DNA from: an uncultured Pseudomonadota bacterium
GTDB taxonomy: Bacteria; Pseudomonadota; Alphaproteobacteria; JACZXZ01
DNA length: 64,000 bases
Assembly: GCA_963749075.1 (NCBI GenBank)
Contig: CAVVLJ010000016.1
Span: forward strand, 224,001 to 288,000
Direction: 5' to 3'
The notes beneath the pieces were generated by a model. That model made no database searches. It was not told the DNA's origin and was given only the letters and a program-made list of their open reading frames with translations. Shown piece after piece: positions 32,653-38,962 of this stretch (the stretch's first letter is position 1; every line of letters begins with the position of its first letter). The translations under genes and the position numbers were made by a program.

Positions 32653-34053
32653 ATGGATGTCTATCCCCTCTTTCTCAAGATTGCCGGCCGGCCCTGCCTT
32701 CTTGTCGGCGGCGGTGCCGCGGCCGAGCGCAAGGCCGAGCTCCTGATGCGCGCGGGGGCGAGGCTCACCATCGTTGCCGAGCGCTTGACGCCGGGGCTCG
32801 CCCGCGCGGCCGGGGCGGGGCGACTGCGGCATCTCGCGGCGCCGCTTGGCCCTGAGCAGTTCCGTGGCCAGGCCCTGGTCGTGGTGGCAAGCGAGGACGA
32901 GGCGCTCGCGCGAGAGGCCTCGGTGCTCGCGCATGGCGCCGGCGTGCCGGTCAATGTGGTCGACCGGCCGGAGCTTTCCACGTGCATTGCCGGTGCCGTT
33001 GTCGACCGCTCGCCCGTGCTCGTCGCGATCACCACGGGCGGTGCGGCGCCCGTGCTGGCGCGCGAGCTGCGCCTTGCCATCGAGCGCTTGCTGCCGCCGT
33101 CGCTCGGCCGGCTCGCCGCCTTCGCCGAGCGCTTCCGTGCCGCCGCCAAGGCAGCGCTCCCGAGCCCGCGCGCGCGCCGGCGCTTCTGGGAGCGCTTCTT
33201 CGCAAGCGCTCTCGCCAAGGCCGTGCTGGCGGGCGACGAGGCCGGCGCGCAGGCCGCCATGGTGGCCCGCGTCAACCGCGGCGAGATGCGCGGGGAGGAT
33301 GTCGGGATCGTCCATCTCGTGGGCGCCGGACCGGGCGATCCCGAGCTCTTGACGCTGCGCGCCCATCGCCTGCTCGCCGAGGCGGATACGATCGTCTATG
33401 ACCGCCTCGTCGATCCGGCCGTGCTCGAGCTTGGCCGCCGCGACGCCGAGCGCATCCATGTCGGCAAGGCGGCGGGCCGCCACAGCCTCAGCCAGGACGA
33501 GATCAACGCGCTCCTCGCGCGCCTCGCCTCCCAAGGCAAGCGCGTGGTGCGGCTCAAGGGCGGCGATCCCTTCGTCTTTGGCCGCGGCGGCGAGGAGCTC
33601 GAGGCGCTGCGCGCGCGCGGCATCGCGGTTGCGGTGGTGCCGGGCGTCACTGCGGCTCTCGGCTGCGCTGCCGCCGCCGAGATCCCGCTCACCTACCGCG
33701 GACTCGCGAGCGCCGTCACCTTCGTCACCGCCTCCCAGCGCGACGGCGGCGAGCTCGATTGGGCGGCGCTCGCCCGCCTGCCGGGCACGCTCGCCATCTA
33801 TATGGGCGTCTCCCAGGCAGAGAGGATCGCGGAGCGCCTCGTCGCCCACGGCCGCCGCCCCGCGACGCCGGTCGCACTCGTCGAGAACGGCACGCGGCAG
33901 GGGGAGCGCGTCATCGTAGGAAAGCTCGGCGAGCTCGCCGCACTCGTCGAGGCGCACGGCATCGGCGCTCCGGCGCTCATCGTCGTGGGCGAGGTGGTGC
34001 GCTTGGCCAAGCCGGCAGCGCTCCCCGCCTTGCCGCTCGCGGCCAGCGCCTGA
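32653..34053 (+). CDS. cysG: Siroheme synthase
   Basis: LVGGG.AAERK, VNVVDRPE, LVGAGPGDPELLTL, RLKGGDPFVFGRGGEE. Confidence 0.95.
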   Translation: MDVYPLFLKIAGRPCLLVGGGAAAERKAELLMRAGARLTIVAERLTPGLARAAGAGRLRHLAAPLGPEQFRGQALVVVASEDEALAREASVLAHGAGVPVNVVDRPELSTCIAGAVVDRSPVLVAITTGGAAPVLARELRLAIERLLPPSLGRLAAFAERFRAAAKAALPSPRARRRFWERFFASALAKAVLAGDEAGAQAAMVARVNRGEMRGEDVGIVHLVGAGPGDPELLTLRAHRLLAEADTIVYDRLVDPAVLELGRRDAERIHVGKAAGRHSLSQDEINALLARLASQGKRVVRLKGGDPFVFGRGGEELEALRARGIAVAVVPGVTAALGCAAAAEIPLTYRGLASAVTFVTASQRDGGELDWAALARLPGTLAIYMGVSQAERIAERLVAHGRRPATPVALVENGTRQGERVIVGKLGELAALVEAHGIGAPALIVVGEVVRLAKPAALPALPLAASA

Positions 34054-34064
34054 GGAGCATGGTC

Positions 34065-34364
34065 ATGGCGCTCGAGATCGTCATCGCCAACCGCCTCTCG
34101 GACGGCCGCACGGTCTATCTCGCGGGGCACGGCTGGAGCGAGCGCATCGCCGAGGCCGAGACGGCAGCGGATGAGGCGGCGCGCGAGGCGCTCTTGGCGC
34201 GCGGCAAGCGCGCGGCCGCCGCCAACGAGGTCGTCGACCCCTATCTCATCGCGGTCGCCGAGGAGGCGGGCGGGCGCCTACCGTTGCGCCGGCGCGAGCG
34301 CATCCGCAGCCAAGGCCCCACGGTCGCGGCCGGCCAGGAGCAGCGCGAAGAGGAGGTTGCCTGA
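34065..34364 (+). CDS. DUF2849 protein
   Basis: IANRLSDGRTVYL, VVDPYLI, RERIRSQGPTV; SD GAGGAG; typical position before cysI. Confidence 0.88.
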   Translation: MALEIVIANRLSDGRTVYLAGHGWSERIAEAETAADEAAREALLARGKRAAAANEVVDPYLIAVAEEAGGRLPLRRRERIRSQGPTVAAGQEQREEEVA

Positions 34365-34367
34365 GCC

Positions 34368-36023
34368 ATGTATAGCTACGACGAATTCGATCAGCGCCTG
34401 GTCGAGGAGCGCGTCGCCCAGTTCCGCGACCAGGTTGCGCGGCGCCTCTCTGGCGAGCTCAGCGAGGAGGAGTTCAAGCCGCTCCGGCTGATGAACGGGC
34501 TCTACCTGCAGCTCCACTCCTACATGCTGCGCGTCGCCATTCCCTATGGCGTGCTCTCGGCCGTGCAGCTCTGCGCCCTCGCCCGCATCGCGCGGCGCTA
34601 CGACAAGGGCTACGGCCATTTCACCACGCGCCAGAACATCCAGTTCCACTGGGTGGCGCTCTCCGAGGTGCCCGACATCCTGGCCGAGCTCGCAAGCGTC
34701 GGCATGCACGCGATCCAGACGAGCGGCAACAGCCTGCGCAACACCACCGCCGACCATTATGCCGGCGTCGCCGCCGACGAGGCGGCCGACCCGCGCGTCT
34801 ATGCCGAGATCATCCGGCAATGGTCGACGCTCCACCCGGAGTTCTCCTTCCTGCCGCGCAAGTTCAAGATTGCGCTGAGCGCAGGCGAGCGCGACCGCGC
34901 CGCGGTCAAGACCCACGACATCGGCCTTTTCGTGCGCCGCGACGGCGCGGGCAGGCTCGGCTTCGAGGTGCTGGTCGGCGGCGGCCAGGGACGCACGCCG
35001 ATCCTGGCGAAGCGCGTGCGCGAGTTCCTCCCCGAGGCACACCTCCTCTCCTATCTCGAGGCCATCTTGCGCGTCTTCAACGAGCTCGGCCGGCGCGACA
35101 ACCTCTACAAGGCGCGCATCAAGATCCTGGTGCACGAGCTCGGCATCGAGAAGTTCGCCGAGCTCGTCGAGGCCGAGTGGCAGGCGATCAAGGACGGCGC
35201 CCTCAAGCTGCCGGTGGAGGAGATCGAGCGCATCCGCGACCACTTCGCACCGCCCGCCTATGAGGAGATCGCGACACCCGTGGCAGCGCTCGAGGCGAGG
35301 CGGCGCGAGGATGCCGCCTTCGCGCGCTGGCTCAGCCATAACACGGCGGCGCATTTCAAGCCCGGCTACGCAATCGTCAACCTCTCGCTCAAGGCGATCG
35401 GGCAGGTGCCGGGCGACATGAGCGCCGAGCAGATGGACGCCGTGGCGACACTCGTGGAGCGCTATAGCCTGGGCGAGCTCCGCGTCACCCACGAGCAGAA
35501 CCTGACGCTGCCCCACGTCAAGGCCGCCGATCTCCATGCGCTGTGGCAGGCCATCCTGCCGCTTGGCCTCGCCACACCCAACATCGGCCTCGCGAGCGAC
35601 ATCATCGCCTGCCCAGGGCTCGACTATTGCGCGCTCGCCAATGCCCGCTCGATCCCCATAGCCCAGCGCATCTCCGAGCGCCTCGCCAGCCTCGAGCGCC
35701 AGGAGGAGGTGGGCGAGCTGCGCATCAAGATCTCGGGCTGCATCAACGCCTGCGGCCACCACCACGTCGGCCACATCGGCATCCTCGGCGTCGACAAGCA
35801 GGGCGAGGAGTTCTACCAGATGACCCTCGGCGGCCACGCCGAGGCGGACGCCTCGCTCGGCACCATCGTCGGCCCGGCCTTCTCGAGTGCGGACATCGTG
35901 GACGCGGTCGAGCGCGTGGTCGAGGCCTATCTCGGTTTGCGCGAGGGCGGCGAGCGCTTCATCGACACCTACCGCCGCTTGGGTCTCGAGCCCTTCAAGG
36001 AGACGCTCTATGCCGCTCATTAA
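34368..36023 (+). CDS. cysI: Sulfite/nitrite reductase hemoprotein
   Basis: GHFTTRQNIQ, FLPRKFKI, IACPGLDYC, ISGCINACGHHH (siroheme/4Fe-4S Cys). Confidence 0.93.
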   Translation: MYSYDEFDQRLVEERVAQFRDQVARRLSGELSEEEFKPLRLMNGLYLQLHSYMLRVAIPYGVLSAVQLCALARIARRYDKGYGHFTTRQNIQFHWVALSEVPDILAELASVGMHAIQTSGNSLRNTTADHYAGVAADEAADPRVYAEIIRQWSTLHPEFSFLPRKFKIALSAGERDRAAVKTHDIGLFVRRDGAGRLGFEVLVGGGQGRTPILAKRVREFLPEAHLLSYLEAILRVFNELGRRDNLYKARIKILVHELGIEKFAELVEAEWQAIKDGALKLPVEEIERIRDHFAPPAYEEIATPVAALEARRREDAAFARWLSHNTAAHFKPGYAIVNLSLKAIGQVPGDMSAEQMDAVATLVERYSLGELRVTHEQNLTLPHVKAADLHALWQAILPLGLATPNIGLASDIIACPGLDYCALANARSIPIAQRISERLASLERQEEVGELRIKISGCINACGHHHVGHIGILGVDKQGEEFYQMTLGGHAEADASLGTIVGPAFSSADIVDAVERVVEAYLGLREGGERFIDTYRRLGLEPFKETLYAAH

Positions 36024-36549
36024 GGCGGGCAAGCTGGCGGACGATCCCTGGCGCCTCCTCGCCGACGACGAGGCAGCGCCCGCCGAGGGGCCCATCGTCG
36101 TCGGCCTCGAGCGCTTCAGGCGCGAGCAGAACGCGCTTCTCGCCCGCGAGGGCCCGCTCGGCATCCGCCTCAAGGCGGGCCAGCACCCGCGAGCGATCGC
36201 CGAGAACGTGCAGCGCTTCGCCCTCATCGCACTCGAGTTCGCCAAATTCACCGACGGGCGCGCCTATTCCTACGCGCGGACTTTGCGCGAGCGCTACGGC
36301 TACCGCGGCGAGCTGCGCGCCGTGGGCCATGTCCTGCGCGACCAGCTTCTCTTCATGCAGCGCTGCGGCTTCGATTCTTTCGAGCTCGCGCGCGCCGACG
36401 CCGCCGAGGCTTTCGCCAAGGCGCTCGCCGAGTTGAGCGTGTGGTACCAGCCGGCGGCGGACGGGCGCGCGACGGCCGAAACGCTCCGGCGATCTCCCTC
36501 TCCTCCTTTAGGAGGAGAGGGTCGGGGTGAGGAGGCGCGCCCGCGCTAA
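36010..36549 (+). CDS. DUF934 protein
   Basis: FAKFTDGRAYSYAR.LR, GELRAVGHVLRDQL.FM.RCGFDSF. Confidence 0.9.
   Translation: MPLIKAGKLADDPWRLLADDEAAPAEGPIVVGLERFRREQNALLAREGPLGIRLKAGQHPRAIAENVQRFALIALEFAKFTDGRAYSYARTLRERYGYRGELRAVGHVLRDQLLFMQRCGFDSFELARADAAEAFAKALAELSVWYQPAADGRATAETLRRSPSPPLGGEGRGEEARPR
36496..36535. repeat. Single REP unit inside the 3' end of the DUF934 gene
   Basis: CCCTCTCCTCCTTTAGGAGGAGAGGGTCGGGGTGAGGAGG. Confidence 0.85.
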
Positions 36550-36920
36550 GCCGCGGAGCGCGTCTCATAGCGTTGCACCAGCACCTCGGCCGGAATCTGC
36601 AAGAGCTCGCTCAGGGCGCGGACCATGGGCAAGGTCAGCGGGCGTCTGCGGTTGAGGATTTCCGACACGCGCCCGCGGCTGCCGATCGCCGGCTCGAGAT
36701 CGCGGCGGGAGAGCCCCTTCTGCTCCATCATGAACTCGACCGCCGCGATCGGGTCAGGCGGGGCGATCGGAAAATGCTCGGCCTCGTAGGCCTCGATGAG
36801 GGTGACCAGCACGTCCGCGCGGTCGCCCTCCGGCGTGCCCGGCTCGGCATCCCAAAAGCGCTCGGCTTCCTTGAGAGCGGCACGGTGGTCGGCCTTCGTC
36901 CTGATGGGACGGATTTCCAT
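36546..36920 (-). CDS. HigA-like HTH antitoxin, orphan
   Basis: MEIRPIRTKAD..AL, LVTLIEAYE, PDPIAAVEF.MEQ.GL, GSRGRVSEILNRRRPLTL.M. Confidence 0.9.
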   Translation of the reverse strand: MEIRPIRTKADHRAALKEAERFWDAEPGTPEGDRADVLVTLIEAYEAEHFPIAPPDPIAAVEFMMEQKGLSRRDLEPAIGSRGRVSEILNRRRPLTLPMVRALSELLQIPAEVLVQRYETRSAA

Positions 36921-36932
36921 GACGAGCGCTCC

Positions 36933-36974
36933 TCACACTCTCTTCGCGTCGACTCAATCGTATTCCCTGTGGGA
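36933..36974 (-). pseudogene. HigB toxin C-terminal remnant
   Basis: Minus strand reads S H R E Y D * V D A K R V *, matching the HigB C-terminus pattern (G.H.EYD..DA..V) with an internal TGA at 36954-36956. Confidence 0.7.
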
Positions 36975-36988
36975 GACACACGCGCGTG

Positions 36989-37017
36989 TTGACAGAGGAA
37001 AATCATAGCGATAACCT
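36989..37017 (+). promoter_or_regulatory. sigma70 promoter of riboswitch-rhodanese-metZ transcript
   Basis: TTGACA-N17-TAACCT; TSS ~37024, at the start of the first SAM-II aptamer. Confidence 0.75.
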
Positions 37018-37024
37018 GCGCTCA

Positions 37025-37078
37025 TCGCGCCGATTTGAGTTCAGCTTGCGGGCGCGGAAAAAATGCCGCTAAAGCGAC
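37025..37078 (+). ncRNA. SAM-II (SAM_alpha) riboswitch, copy 1
   Basis: CGCGCC-GATTTG-AGTTCA-GCTTGC-GGGCGCG-GAAAAAATGCC-GCTAAAG: P1 stem plus GATTT, TTGC and GCTAAA motifs; upstream of metZ. Confidence 0.88.
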
Positions 37079-37084
37079 GGGACG

Positions 37085-37119
37085 ACCGCCCGGCGGCAGC
37101 GCTGCGGCGGTTTTTTGTT
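37085..37119 (+). terminator. Intrinsic terminator between the two SAM-II aptamers
   Basis: ACCGCC-CGGCG-GCAG-CGCTG-C-GGCGGT followed by TTTTTGTT. Confidence 0.75.
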
Positions 37120-37145
37120 GGGCCTGGTCCGGGCCGTGTCCGGAC

Positions 37146-37196
37146 CCGCGGGATTTGACGGGCAGCTTGCGCCGCGTGTTCCACCGCTAAAGCGCC
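37146..37196 (+). ncRNA. SAM-II (SAM_alpha) riboswitch, copy 2
   Basis: CGCGG-GATTTG-ACGGGCA-GCTTGC-G-CCGCG-TGTTCCACC-GCTAAAG. Confidence 0.8.
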
Positions 37197-37248
37197 ACGG
37201 GGATGACCTCCGTGGGCCCGTGTAACCCAAGTGAAGGAGGGCATCCGC

Positions 37249-37317
37249 ATGTCTCCGCTGCTCCATACTCCGCAATACCCGTCTCAGTCTCCTCTCGCGG
37301 GGAGGGCCGTGCGATGA
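37249..37317 (+). CDS. Putative 22-aa leader peptide (MSPLLHTPQYPSQSPLAGRAVR)
   Basis: Strong SD GAAGGAGG 8 nt before ATG; its TGA overlaps the rhodanese ATG (ATGA). Confidence 0.5.
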   Translation: MSPLLHTPQYPSQSPLAGRAVR

Positions 37318-37739
37318 GCGGAGAGGCTTACGCCGGCGACGTCGACGCACTCCGCGCCTGGGAGATCCTCAAGGACGATGCGAAGGCGGTCCTGGTCGAC
37401 GTGCGCACCAGGCCCGAGTGCCGCTACGTCGGCCATCCCGACTTGAAGGCGCTCGGCCGCGAGCCGGTCTTCGTCGAGTGGCAGGCCTATCCCGACCTCG
37501 CGCACAACCAGCGCTTTGCCGACGAGCTCGCCGAGAAGGGCGTCGCCAAGGACGCGACACTCCTCCTCCTCTGCCGCTCGGGCGGGCGCTCCAAGTCCGC
37601 GGCCATCCTCCTGACCAAGCTCGGCTACCGCTGCTGCTACAACGTGGCCGACGGCTTCGAGGGGGCCAAGGACGGCCAAGGCCACCGCGGCGTCAGCGGC
37701 GGCTGGAAGGCCGCGGGCCTGCCCTGGCAGCAGGACTGA
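37314..37739 (+). CDS. Rhodanese-like sulfurtransferase
   Basis: YAGDV, LVDVRT.PE..YVG.P, LCRSGGRS active loop, NVADGFEG, GWKAAGLPW. Confidence 0.92.
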   Translation: MSGEAYAGDVDALRAWEILKDDAKAVLVDVRTRPECRYVGHPDLKALGREPVFVEWQAYPDLAHNQRFADELAEKGVAKDATLLLLCRSGGRSKSAAILLTKLGYRCCYNVADGFEGAKDGQGHRGVSGGWKAAGLPWQQD

Positions 37740-37756
37740 GCCCGGGGGGCACCACG

Positions 37757-38962
37757 ATGGCAAAGGGCAAGAAGAGCGTCGCGGACGCCTGGCGTCCTCA
37801 GACGCGGCTCGTGCGCGGCGGCACGGTCCGCTCCGGCCACGGCGAGACGAGCGAGGCGATCTTCCTCACCTCGGGATTCGTCTACGAGAGCGCCGAGGAG
37901 GCCGAGGCGCGATTTAAGGGCGAGGCGCCGGGCTTCATCTATTCGCGCTATGGCAATCCCACGGTCGCCATGTTCGAGAAGCGCATGGCGCTCCTCGAAG
38001 GGGCCGAGGCCTGTTTTGCCACGGCGACCGGCATGGCGGCGGTCTTCGCCTCGCTCATGTGCCAGCTCCGTGCCGGCCAGCGCGTGGTGGCGGCGCGCGC
38101 ACTCTTCGGCTCGTGCCACTTCATCATCACCCAGCTCCTGCCGCGCTGGGGTATTGAGACCGAGCTCGTCGACGGGCCCGACTTAGCACAGTGGCGGGCG
38201 GCGCTGGCACCGGGTGCTGCGGCGGTGTTCTTCGAGACGCCGGCCAATCCGACGCTCGAGCTCATCGACATCGCCGCGGTCGCCAAGCTCGCCCATGCCG
38301 CGGGTGCGGTGGTCATCGTCGACAACGTGTTCTCGACGCCGGTGCTGCAGCGCCCGCTGCCGCTCGGCGCCGACATCGTCGTCTATTCCGCGACCAAGCA
38401 CATCGACGGGCAGGGCAGGGCGCTCGGCGGCGCCATCCTCTCGAGCGACAAGTTCTACCGCGAGCAGCTCATGCCCTTCATGCGCCACACCGGGCCGGCC
38501 TTGAGCCCGTTCAACGCCTGGATCATGCTCAAGGGCCTCGAGACGCTGGGGCCGCGCGTCGAGCGCCACGCGCAGAACGCCCGCAAAGTGGCCGACTTCC
38601 TGGCCGGCGAGAAGGCCGTCGCCCGGGTGCTCTATCCCGGCCACAAGAGCCATCCGCAATACCGCCTGGCGCGGCGCCAGATGGCCGGGCCCGGCACCAT
38701 GGTGAGCTTCGAGCTCAAGGCCGGCAAGACGGGCGCCTTCCGCTTCCTCAATGCGCTCGAGGTCATCGACATCTCGAACAACCTGGGCGACGCCAAGTCG
38801 CTCGTCACCCATCCGGCGACCACGACGCACCGCGCCGTGGGTGCCGAGGAGCGCGCCCGCATGGGCATCGGGGACGGGCTGGTGCGCCTCTCGGTCGGGC
38901 TCGAGGACGCGGACGACTTGATCGACGACCTCGCGCGCGGCCTCAAGGCGGCGGGGCGCTGA
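37757..38962 (+). CDS. metZ: O-succinylhomoserine sulfhydrylase
   Basis: ETSEAIFLTSGF, YSRYGNPT, YSATKHIDGQGR, SNNLGDAKSL.HPATTTH. Confidence 0.95.
   Translation: MAKGKKSVADAWRPQTRLVRGGTVRSGHGETSEAIFLTSGFVYESAEEAEARFKGEAPGFIYSRYGNPTVAMFEKRMALLEGAEACFATATGMAAVFASLMCQLRAGQRVVAARALFGSCHFIITQLLPRWGIETELVDGPDLAQWRAALAPGAAAVFFETPANPTLELIDIAAVAKLAHAAGAVVIVDNVFSTPVLQRPLPLGADIVVYSATKHIDGQGRALGGAILSSDKFYREQLMPFMRHTGPALSPFNAWIMLKGLETLGPRVERHAQNARKVADFLAGEKAVARVLYPGHKSHPQYRLARRQMAGPGTMVSFELKAGKTGAFRFLNALEVIDISNNLGDAKSLVTHPATTTHRAVGAEERARMGIGDGLVRLSVGLEDADDLIDDLARGLKAAGR

Follow-up and report, generated by a model that had tools for sequence, protein, structure and literature searches.

The window analyzed here is a 64,000-nucleotide (nt) stretch of contig CAVVLJ010000016.1 (assembly GCA_963749075.1) from an uncultured alphaproteobacterium. 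It contains two aptamers of the SAM-II type, i.e., of a riboswitch family for S-adenosylmethionine (SAM), in the 5' leader of an operon of methionine/SAM (met) genes, with a rhodanese-domain gene followed by a metZ-like gene downstream. The leader is arranged in the order TTGAC promoter box, aptamer 1, terminator, 5' hairpin (H0), aptamer 2, 3' hairpin (H3), and Shine-Dalgarno (SD) sequence, and a short upstream open reading frame (uORF) lies between the SD sequence and the rhodanese gene. The features are as follows (positions are those of the whole window, on the + strand unless stated).

36989 to 37017, + strand: putative promoter (-35 box TTGACA, 36989 to 36994; 17-nt spacer; -10-like box TAACCT, 37012 to 37017).
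37026 to 37075, + strand: SAM-II aptamer 1 ("type A"; P1, 37026 to 37031/37051 to 37056; L1 GAUUUGA, 37032 to 37038; P2 5' strand, 37044 to 37050, and 3' strand, 37067 to 37075).
37084 to 37116, + strand: intrinsic terminator (stem, 37084 to 37112; core, 37086 to 37095/37100 to 37110, with one bulge; U6, 37111 to 37116).
37126 to 37146, + strand: hairpin H0, GGUCCGG/CCGGACC, immediately 5' of aptamer 2 P1 (-18.2 kcal/mol).
37147 to 37193, + strand: SAM-II-type aptamer 2 ("type B"; P1, 37147 to 37151/37172 to 37176; L1 GAUUUGA, 37152 to 37158; P2 5' strand, 37165 to 37171, and 3' strand, 37185 to 37193).
37195 to 37215, + strand: hairpin H3, CCACGGGG/CCUCCGUGG (-14.1 kcal/mol), present in all four tandem leaders described below.
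37216 to 37219, + strand: GCCC, which could pair with GGGC (37160 to 37163) in the aptamer 2 loop across H3 (RNAalifold, four sequences).
37234 to 37241, + strand: SD sequence of the uORF, AAGGAGGG, in which GGAGG is separated by 8 nt from the ATG at 37249.
37249 to 37317, + strand: uORF of 22 codons, MSPLLHTPQYPSQSPLAGRAVR, whose TGA overlaps the rhodanese ATG (ATGA).
37314 to 37739, + strand: rhodanese-domain protein of 141 amino acids (aa) (Pfam PF00581, 34.3 bits), with its own GGAGG (37301 to 37305) 8 nt upstream.
37757 to 38962, + strand: metZ-like pyridoxal phosphate enzyme of Cys/Met metabolism (O-succinylhomoserine sulfhydrylase type; Pfam PF01053, 443.5 bits), 17 nt after the rhodanese stop codon.

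Most of the close homologues of the rhodanese are 141 aa long with 100% query coverage, which supports its start codon. The PF01053 score was obtained from a translation begun two codons upstream (37751), after which the ATG was set at 37757.

The elements listed in a first-pass annotation of the sequence (promoter, two aptamers, terminator, two hairpins, and SD sequence) were each found where it had placed them, and the motifs GATTTG, GCTTGC, and GCTAAAG that it reported as kept in both aptamers are exact matches in both. Its SD sequence is present but serves the 22-codon uORF, which had been overlooked, and not the rhodanese gene directly. The window has exactly two occurrences of the pattern GATTTGA-N3-12-GCTTGC-N10-30-GCTAAAG (37032 to 37074 and 37152 to 37192), and as a chance control the same three-motif pattern appeared in none of 100 dinucleotide shuffles. 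Two SAM-II-type aptamers sharing one leader, an intrinsic terminator after the first (by terminator scan and folding), and a hairpin and ribosome-binding site (RBS) after the second were likewise borne out. The folding z-score of the full leader (-0.39) was uninformative. We consider it very likely that the tandem in the window, two SAM-II-type aptamers with an intervening terminator, is genuine and conserved. The composite reading that we prefer, in which the leader of the uORF-rhodanese-metZ operon acts as a "bi-mechanism" tandem SAM-II riboswitch, has in our estimate a probability of about 0.7.

Aptamer 1 was the sole match in the window at Rfam gathering thresholds (SAM_alpha, RF00521; 37017 to 37092; 39.1 bits versus a cut-off of 36). 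Its P1 comprises 6 base pairs (bp), its P2 can form 7 pairs, and its A-rich L3, GAAAAAAUG, agrees with the family, in which the segment between P1 and the P2 3' strand has the consensus UUAAAcAAgU. The terminator was detected by a terminator consensus scan, and the enclosing region (37060 to 37122) folds at -28.1 kcal/mol. The terminator stem and U-tract are kept in all four tandem leaders with three pairs changed on both sides (RNAalifold), and RNAalifold applied to the first half of these leaders recovers P1 and the terminator. In truncated folds without the terminator 3' arm, the 5' arm of the terminator pairs instead with UGCCGCU (37064 to 37070), a segment that shares nucleotides with the P2 3' strand; this segment is a candidate antiterminator, which SAM binding would remove. 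Aptamer 1 and the terminator represent the classical SAM-II design and are a textbook case. SAM-II was described as the metA motif, in which P1 is combined with a P2 pseudoknot, a promoter lies immediately upstream of P1, and a terminator is frequent; the motif was interpreted as an OFF switch (Corbino et al. 2005, PMC1273637). The leader resembles that family (RF00521) in the pseudoknot, in the promoter a few nucleotides before P1, and in the location upstream of Met/SAM genes.

In the proposed first layer, SAM-bound aptamer 1 would adopt the P1/P2 pseudoknot, making the P2 3' strand unavailable for antitermination; the terminator at 37084 to 37116 would then form, and a riboswitch RNA of roughly 93 to 96 nt would be released. 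Transcription probably starts near 37024, and with termination presumed at 37111 to 37116, the terminated small RNA (sRNA) of approximately 95 nt suggested by the first-pass annotation is plausible. For comparison, the terminated metZ SAM-II riboswitch of Sinorhizobium meliloti accumulates as the RZ sRNA of approximately 100 nt at high SAM (Scheuer et al. 2022, PMC9373788). As in the window, SAM-II stands before metZ in S. meliloti and has a Rho-independent terminator as its platform; unlike the window, S. meliloti has a single aptamer without a translational layer, and the parts of that paper concerned with metZ mention no rhodanese before it.

Aptamer 2 was matched by SAM_alpha in a permissive search of 451 nt (36900 to 37350), with 21.6 bits (37138 to 37210; E = 0.011; cut-off, 36), and no SAM_V (RF01826) match was obtained in this region at E ≤ 10. 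The check with Infernal and Rfam models that had been proposed for the tandem thus confirmed aptamer 1 and left aptamer 2 under threshold. A default Rfam scan returns only one covariance-model hit, an outcome that had been named in advance as speaking against the tandem; we accepted aptamer 2 on comparative evidence instead. The possibility that aptamer 2 is a SAM-V or a "SAM-II long-loop" aptamer was discarded, as there was no such match (RF01726 matched aptamer 1 alone, at 16 bits). The P1 of aptamer 2 comprises 5 bp, its P2 can form 7 pairs, and it holds all 14 invariant columns of a 20-sequence alignment of SAM-II aptamers (A5, see below). The five core pairs of H0 are identical in all four tandem leaders, and RNAalifold applied to the second half of these leaders finds both H0 and H3 as well as the P2 helix, along with a GGGC/GCCC helix that might form across H3. 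The pairs of the latter helix are kept in three to four of the four leaders, G-C being replaced by G-U twice and one pair being broken; because it is missing from the stand-alone relatives of aptamer 2 (see below), we retain it only as a possible helix. Judged from these sequence comparisons, aptamer 2 is real as a conserved element, and its SAM response and output are putative.

To place the leader in a comparative context, a profile of 35 rhodanese homologues (A1) was scanned against genome contigs. At least 599 stretches matched, of which 585 could be confirmed, and we retained the best 80 as loci (L001 and following). None of the rhodanese proteins of these 80 loci is more than 59% identical to that of the window; the source genome and the metagenome proteins with 80 to 89% identity are not among them. 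A covariance model (R1) was built from A5, which consists of 20 aptamers of both subtypes, and was run over the window and the 80 loci (469,676 bases). At E ≤ 1, R1 gave 14 matches. The window, L001, L007, and L018 have two apiece, and L026, L039, L072, L022, L033, and L067 have a single match; the other 71 loci had none. Ten of the 14 matches are training sequences, including aptamer 1 (58.8 bits) and aptamer 2 (61.6 bits) of the window, and those in L026, L022, L033, and L067 are new. Loose single matches to the motif pattern (e.g., in L034, L035, L044, and L058) were unconfirmed by R1 and were dropped in favor of the R1 count.

The whole tandem leader recurs in L001, L007, and L018. From the TTGAC box, which is invariant in all four tandem leaders (alignment A3), to the start codon, the leaders have a mean column identity of 76% in each half (A3 and A2), and the rhodanese proteins of the tandem loci are approximately 56% identical to that of the window. 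The conservation of the leader RNA beside such divergent proteins argues that both halves are under selection. Twelve of the 80 loci were scanned with SAM_alpha, which gave 38.0 and 33.3 bits for the two aptamers of L001, 37.9 and 29.5 bits for those of L007, and 34.8 bits for the first aptamer of L018.

In A5, 92.7% of the positions in the P1 and P2 model are paired, versus 31.9 to 56.5% with slid partners. Five of the 13 pairs are changed on both sides, and the covariation score was reached by none of 500 shuffles. P1 contributes four of its six pairs changed on both sides (94.4% of cells paired). The P2 helix, formed by GCUUGC with the 3' tail GC-UA-AAGC, is 91.4% paired, and all 20 sequences retain its four central pairs; as these never vary, P2 provides evidence of conservation, not of covariation.

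The gene served is metZ in all nine of the riboswitch-bearing loci; metZ adjoins the rhodanese gene in 20 of the 80 loci. The riboswitch stands before rhodanese-metZ in L001, L007, and L026, between rhodanese and metZ in L018, L039, and L072, and before a convergent metZ in L022, L033, and L067. This variable position indicates that the rhodanese gene has both joined and left the SAM-controlled unit. The elements between rhodanese and metZ are a tandem in L018 (3031 to 3301) and single aptamers in L039 (3618 to 3696) and L072 (3676 to 3752), with 60.1 and 62.4 bits, respectively.

The two aptamers have just the family core in common. A blastn search of the leader against PLSDB returned 21 records, of which 18 match the aptamer 2 core and three match the aptamer 1 part. 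The 18 plasmid or chromid records are from Azospirillum (13 records), with the rest from Tistrella, Niveispirillum, Microvirga, Novosphingobium, and Pseudoroseomonas. Ten type-B loci were taken (L081 to L089 and L091), with L081 to L084 read whole and L085 to L089 read in part. In the loci read as sequence, the element is the only aptamer and is preceded by a promoter-like TTGAC box. It consists of a 5' hairpin of variable sequence, a P1 of CCGCGG/CCGCG, xAUUUGA, a short variable loop, and CAGCUUGCG, followed by an L3 of UCACCAAAC, GCUAAAGCGCC, a hairpin CCACG...CGUGG, an SD sequence, and a short ORF; at the H0 position, L084, L086, and L087 have hairpins of unrelated sequence. All 10 of these stand-alone elements are under the 36-bit cut-off of RF00521 (six with 22.0 to 27.5 bits and four without a match at E ≤ 1). 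On sequence grounds, aptamer 2 is a member of this second SAM-II subtype ("type B") and not a copy of aptamer 1, a difference that the first-pass annotation had overlooked. Together with aptamer 2 itself, these 10 elements differ from RF00521 in falling under its cut-off, in having extra flanking hairpins, and in having a different L3. The tandem most likely arose by the placement of a terminator-type SAM-II riboswitch before a translation-type SAM-II riboswitch and not by duplication.

The most plausible reading of the leader is the one already proposed in the first-pass annotation, i.e., control of transcription followed by control of translation. Read-through transcripts would carry a second SAM-II aptamer, of the other subtype, between H0 and H3. 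Upon SAM binding, the stabilized P2 and a short GGC/GCC extension would take the base of H3, and the freed loop and 3' arm of H3 would pair with the SD region of the uORF and mask its start; through the ATGA at which the two reading frames overlap, translation of the rhodanese gene would then fall as well. The H3 loop and 3' arm, GAUGACCUCC (37202 to 37211), are complementary to the SD region, GGAGGGCAUC (37236 to 37245), with nine pairs and one mismatch (duplex, -20.5 kcal/mol), and L001 has a perfect 9-nt anti-SD counterpart of different sequence, AAGUCUCCC/GGGAGACUU. When P2 and the extension were blocked, the minimum-energy fold of the window's platform switched from H3 to the anti-SD:SD helix. 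A hairpin within the uORF that would mask the rhodanese SD sequence was no better than shuffles (z-scores, +0.38 and +1.17), so coupling mediated by structure was dropped and the ATGA overlap alone remains. The OFF polarity is drawn from the gene content and not from structure. For SAM-dependent masking of the uORF ribosome site as the second layer, we see about an even chance, perhaps slightly better.

A number of observations weigh against the composite reading. A sigma-70 consensus scan returned no promoter site, because TAACCT agrees with TATAAT at just three of six positions. Aptamer 2 scores 14 bits under the Rfam cut-off, and its L3, GUGUUCCA, is without the A-run of the family consensus and of the type-B consensus UCACCAAAC, so that its binding of SAM may be weak or absent. 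Just 3 of the 80 loci have the whole leader, and in one of these (L018) P1 of the second aptamer contains a C-U mismatch, with no SAM_alpha match to that aptamer at E ≤ 1. P1 is nearly invariant within type B, and its covariation in A5 is mostly between the subtypes. Regarding the platform, the advantage over shuffles was modest: shuffled ribosome sites gave a duplex with H3 as good as the real one in 26 (window), 7 (L001), 23 (L083), and 25 (L085) of 500 cases, i.e., ≤26 in 4 of 11 leaders; the other seven leaders had 37 (L087), 44 (L086), 93 (L088), 142 (L018), 227 (L007), 441 (L082), and 450 (L084). The mean unpaired probability of the window's SD sequence was 0.38 in the apo model versus 0.42 and 0.38 under two holo constraints, and SD/AUG accessibility was equally flat in the other eight of the nine leaders modelled; among these nine, the minimum-energy structure switched only in the window and a few others. 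Stacking of H3 on P2 could stabilize H3 in the bound state, which would give the opposite polarity. Finally, the rhodanese gene has its own good SD sequence without a predicted masking hairpin and could escape the second layer.

Several of these points would fit a leader in which aptamer 1 and the terminator alone regulate, aptamer 2 is a decaying relic, and the downstream hairpins and SD sequence are constitutive. The score of 21.6 bits against a cut-off of 36, an L3 that is the most divergent of 13 type-B sequences, the flat SD accessibility in the thermodynamic models, and a uORF that is not conserved (61 codons in L001, 2301 to 2486, and none in L007 or L018) all speak for such a relic. 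However, aptamer 2 keeps all 14 invariant A5 columns together with an intact 5-bp P1 and 7-bp P2, and the module, including H0 and H3, is conserved beside flanking proteins that are approximately 56% identical. Neutral decay would not keep that, and we regard a relic as unlikely.

A functional aptamer 2 might also act through transcription, either because a SAM-dependent block of uORF translation exposes the RNA to Rho or because both switches act pseudo-cooperatively on RNA synthesis. H3 has no U-tract and is thus no intrinsic terminator, and in L007 and L018 the SD sequence after aptamer 2 serves the main gene directly, without a uORF. These two features make transcriptional output of aptamer 2 rather improbable, even though apo/holo modelling gave no clear SD switch, expression platforms often cannot be read from sequence (Sherlock et al., PMC9481103), and a short ORF approximately 100 to 200 nt ahead of the main gene after every type-B element suits polarity control.

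The polarity or the ligand of aptamer 2 might differ from our proposal, in that an ON switch or an aptamer for a ligand other than SAM would make the leader a band-pass or two-input gate. H3 continues the P2 3' strand, and its stacking could leave the SD sequence free in the presence of ligand; moreover, GCCC (37216 to 37219) can pair either with the aptamer-loop GGGC or with GGGC in the SD region, and the subtype is under the Rfam cut-off in all 10 stand-alone cases. On the other hand, the core motifs of the SAM-II family are all unchanged, and the genes behind type-B elements (metZ and those for a MetQ-type binding protein and a TauD-type dioxygenase) are expected to be repressed by SAM; an ON switch or a different ligand is accordingly improbable in our view. 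Separate transcripts, with H0 and aptamer 2 behind a promoter of their own, are highly improbable: H0 does stand straight behind the promoter in the stand-alone leaders L083 and L084, but just approximately 10 nt separate the U-tract from H0 in the window, this short spacing is kept in L007, a consensus scan found no promoter-like site in 36500 to 38000, and the longer spacers of L001 and L018 are also without a TTGAC box.

The bi-mechanism tandem thus favored has published relatives, and the premise of the first-pass annotation that a two-layer SAM-II/SAM-II switch would be new is wrong, because mixed-design SAM-II tandems have already been published. Sherlock et al. (2022, RNA Biol 19:1059, PMC9481103) reported 44 tandem SAM-II riboswitches, some with two terminators and others with a terminator and then RBS control, and likened the mixed tandems to the SAM-II/SAM-V "bi-mechanism" tandems (149 examples). 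Like the window, the mixed tandems have two SAM-II aptamers, with a terminator after the first and apparent control of RBS access by the second. The passages of the paper that treat the 44 examples give no organism, gene, or sequence for them and mention neither differing subtypes nor a uORF. The SAM-II/SAM-V tandems of "Candidatus Pelagibacter" and other marine bacteria (PMC9481103) resemble the window in that a terminator-type SAM aptamer is followed by a structurally different translation-type aptamer for the same ligand; they differ in that aptamer 2 of the window is not SAM-V, its host is a high-GC alphaproteobacterium, and its genes are rhodanese-metZ. A passage of a further source (PMC12452182) pools all SAM classes and has nothing specific on SAM-II tandems. 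The window therefore represents one well-resolved tandem SAM-II riboswitch, with four aligned genomes, in a class known from a survey count alone. Its two aptamer lineages parallel the SAM-II/SAM-V arrangement and suggest modular assembly over duplication. As type B is under the Rfam cut-off in every case tested, standard annotation under-counts SAM-II riboswitches and their tandems in Rhodospirillales-like bacteria.

By titles and the openings of abstracts, no description of the type-B form was found in the literature on SAM-II tandems and variants, which is no proof that it is unpublished. The genes beyond the stand-alone elements encode a conserved protein of approximately 66 aa, MetQ/NlpA-type binding proteins, and a TauD-type dioxygenase. 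Type B may be an undescribed SAM-II subclass (near-invariant P1 CCGCGG/CCGCG, L3 UCACCAAAC, H0 and H3, missed by RF00521) whose stand-alone form gates the translation of short Cys-rich uORFs ahead of sulfur/methionine uptake genes, and the tandem in the window would then be its fusion with a classical terminator-type SAM-II riboswitch. We offer this proposal tentatively and consider it more doubtful than probable. If it is true, one leader would combine two inputs, with SAM sensed by the riboswitch and charged Cys-tRNA sensed by how fast ribosomes move on the uORF, and the tandem would be an alphaproteobacterial counterpart of SAM-II/SAM-V.

The first ORF after the stand-alone type-B element is cysteine-rich in seven of eight loci (L082 to L088), and that of L089 is without Cys. 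L085 has MTCCCP, and L082, L083, L084, L086, L087, and L088 have three to four Cys in 23 to 34 aa, often with CC near the C terminus. The 61-aa uORF of L001 also has CC near its end; the uORF of the window is without Cys. Pooled, the short ORFs contain 22 Cys in 189 aa (11.6%) versus 2.85% in six-frame translations of the same loci, a figure that is indicative only, as four loci are Azospirillum relatives and start codons were picked by an SD rule. Mycobacterial polycysteine short ORFs, which are cysteine-responsive attenuators (bioRxiv 10.1101/834739), are a possible analogue. Such Cys-rich uORFs after the stand-alone relatives, if upheld, would link a riboswitch to a peptide-based amino acid sensor.

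Several genera encode a conserved small protein of approximately 65 to 93 aa downstream of the type-B riboswitch and uORF, and a MetQ/NlpA gene often lies beyond it (L083, 1772 to 1972; L084, 1772 to 1969; L081, 1713 to 1916; L082, 1756 to 2037; L086, 867 to 1064; L087, 895 to 1095). Seven columns are invariant among the six sequences. The protein had no Pfam family above threshold and one weak DUF6894 match (17.4 bits versus a cut-off of 24.1).

In the window, the riboswitch operon adjoins a sulfur assimilation cluster (32653 to 36549, + strand), which encodes a sulfite or nitrite reductase (PF01077/PF03460) and a DUF934 protein in addition to a siroheme synthase-like ORF (so named on visual inspection of its translation). 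A divergent gene for an HTH_3 protein (36546 to 36920, - strand) begins approximately 70 nt upstream of the riboswitch promoter.

A match to the Rfam family Bp2_287 on the - strand (37028 to 37109; 22.3 bits versus a cut-off of 70) was rejected as an antisense image of aptamer 1 and the terminator. In the alignment with Bp2_287, a candidate sRNA from Burkholderia, the matching motifs correspond to GAUUUG, GCUUGC, and GCUAAAG in antisense, which suggests that this family may itself represent the opposite strand of a SAM-II leader.

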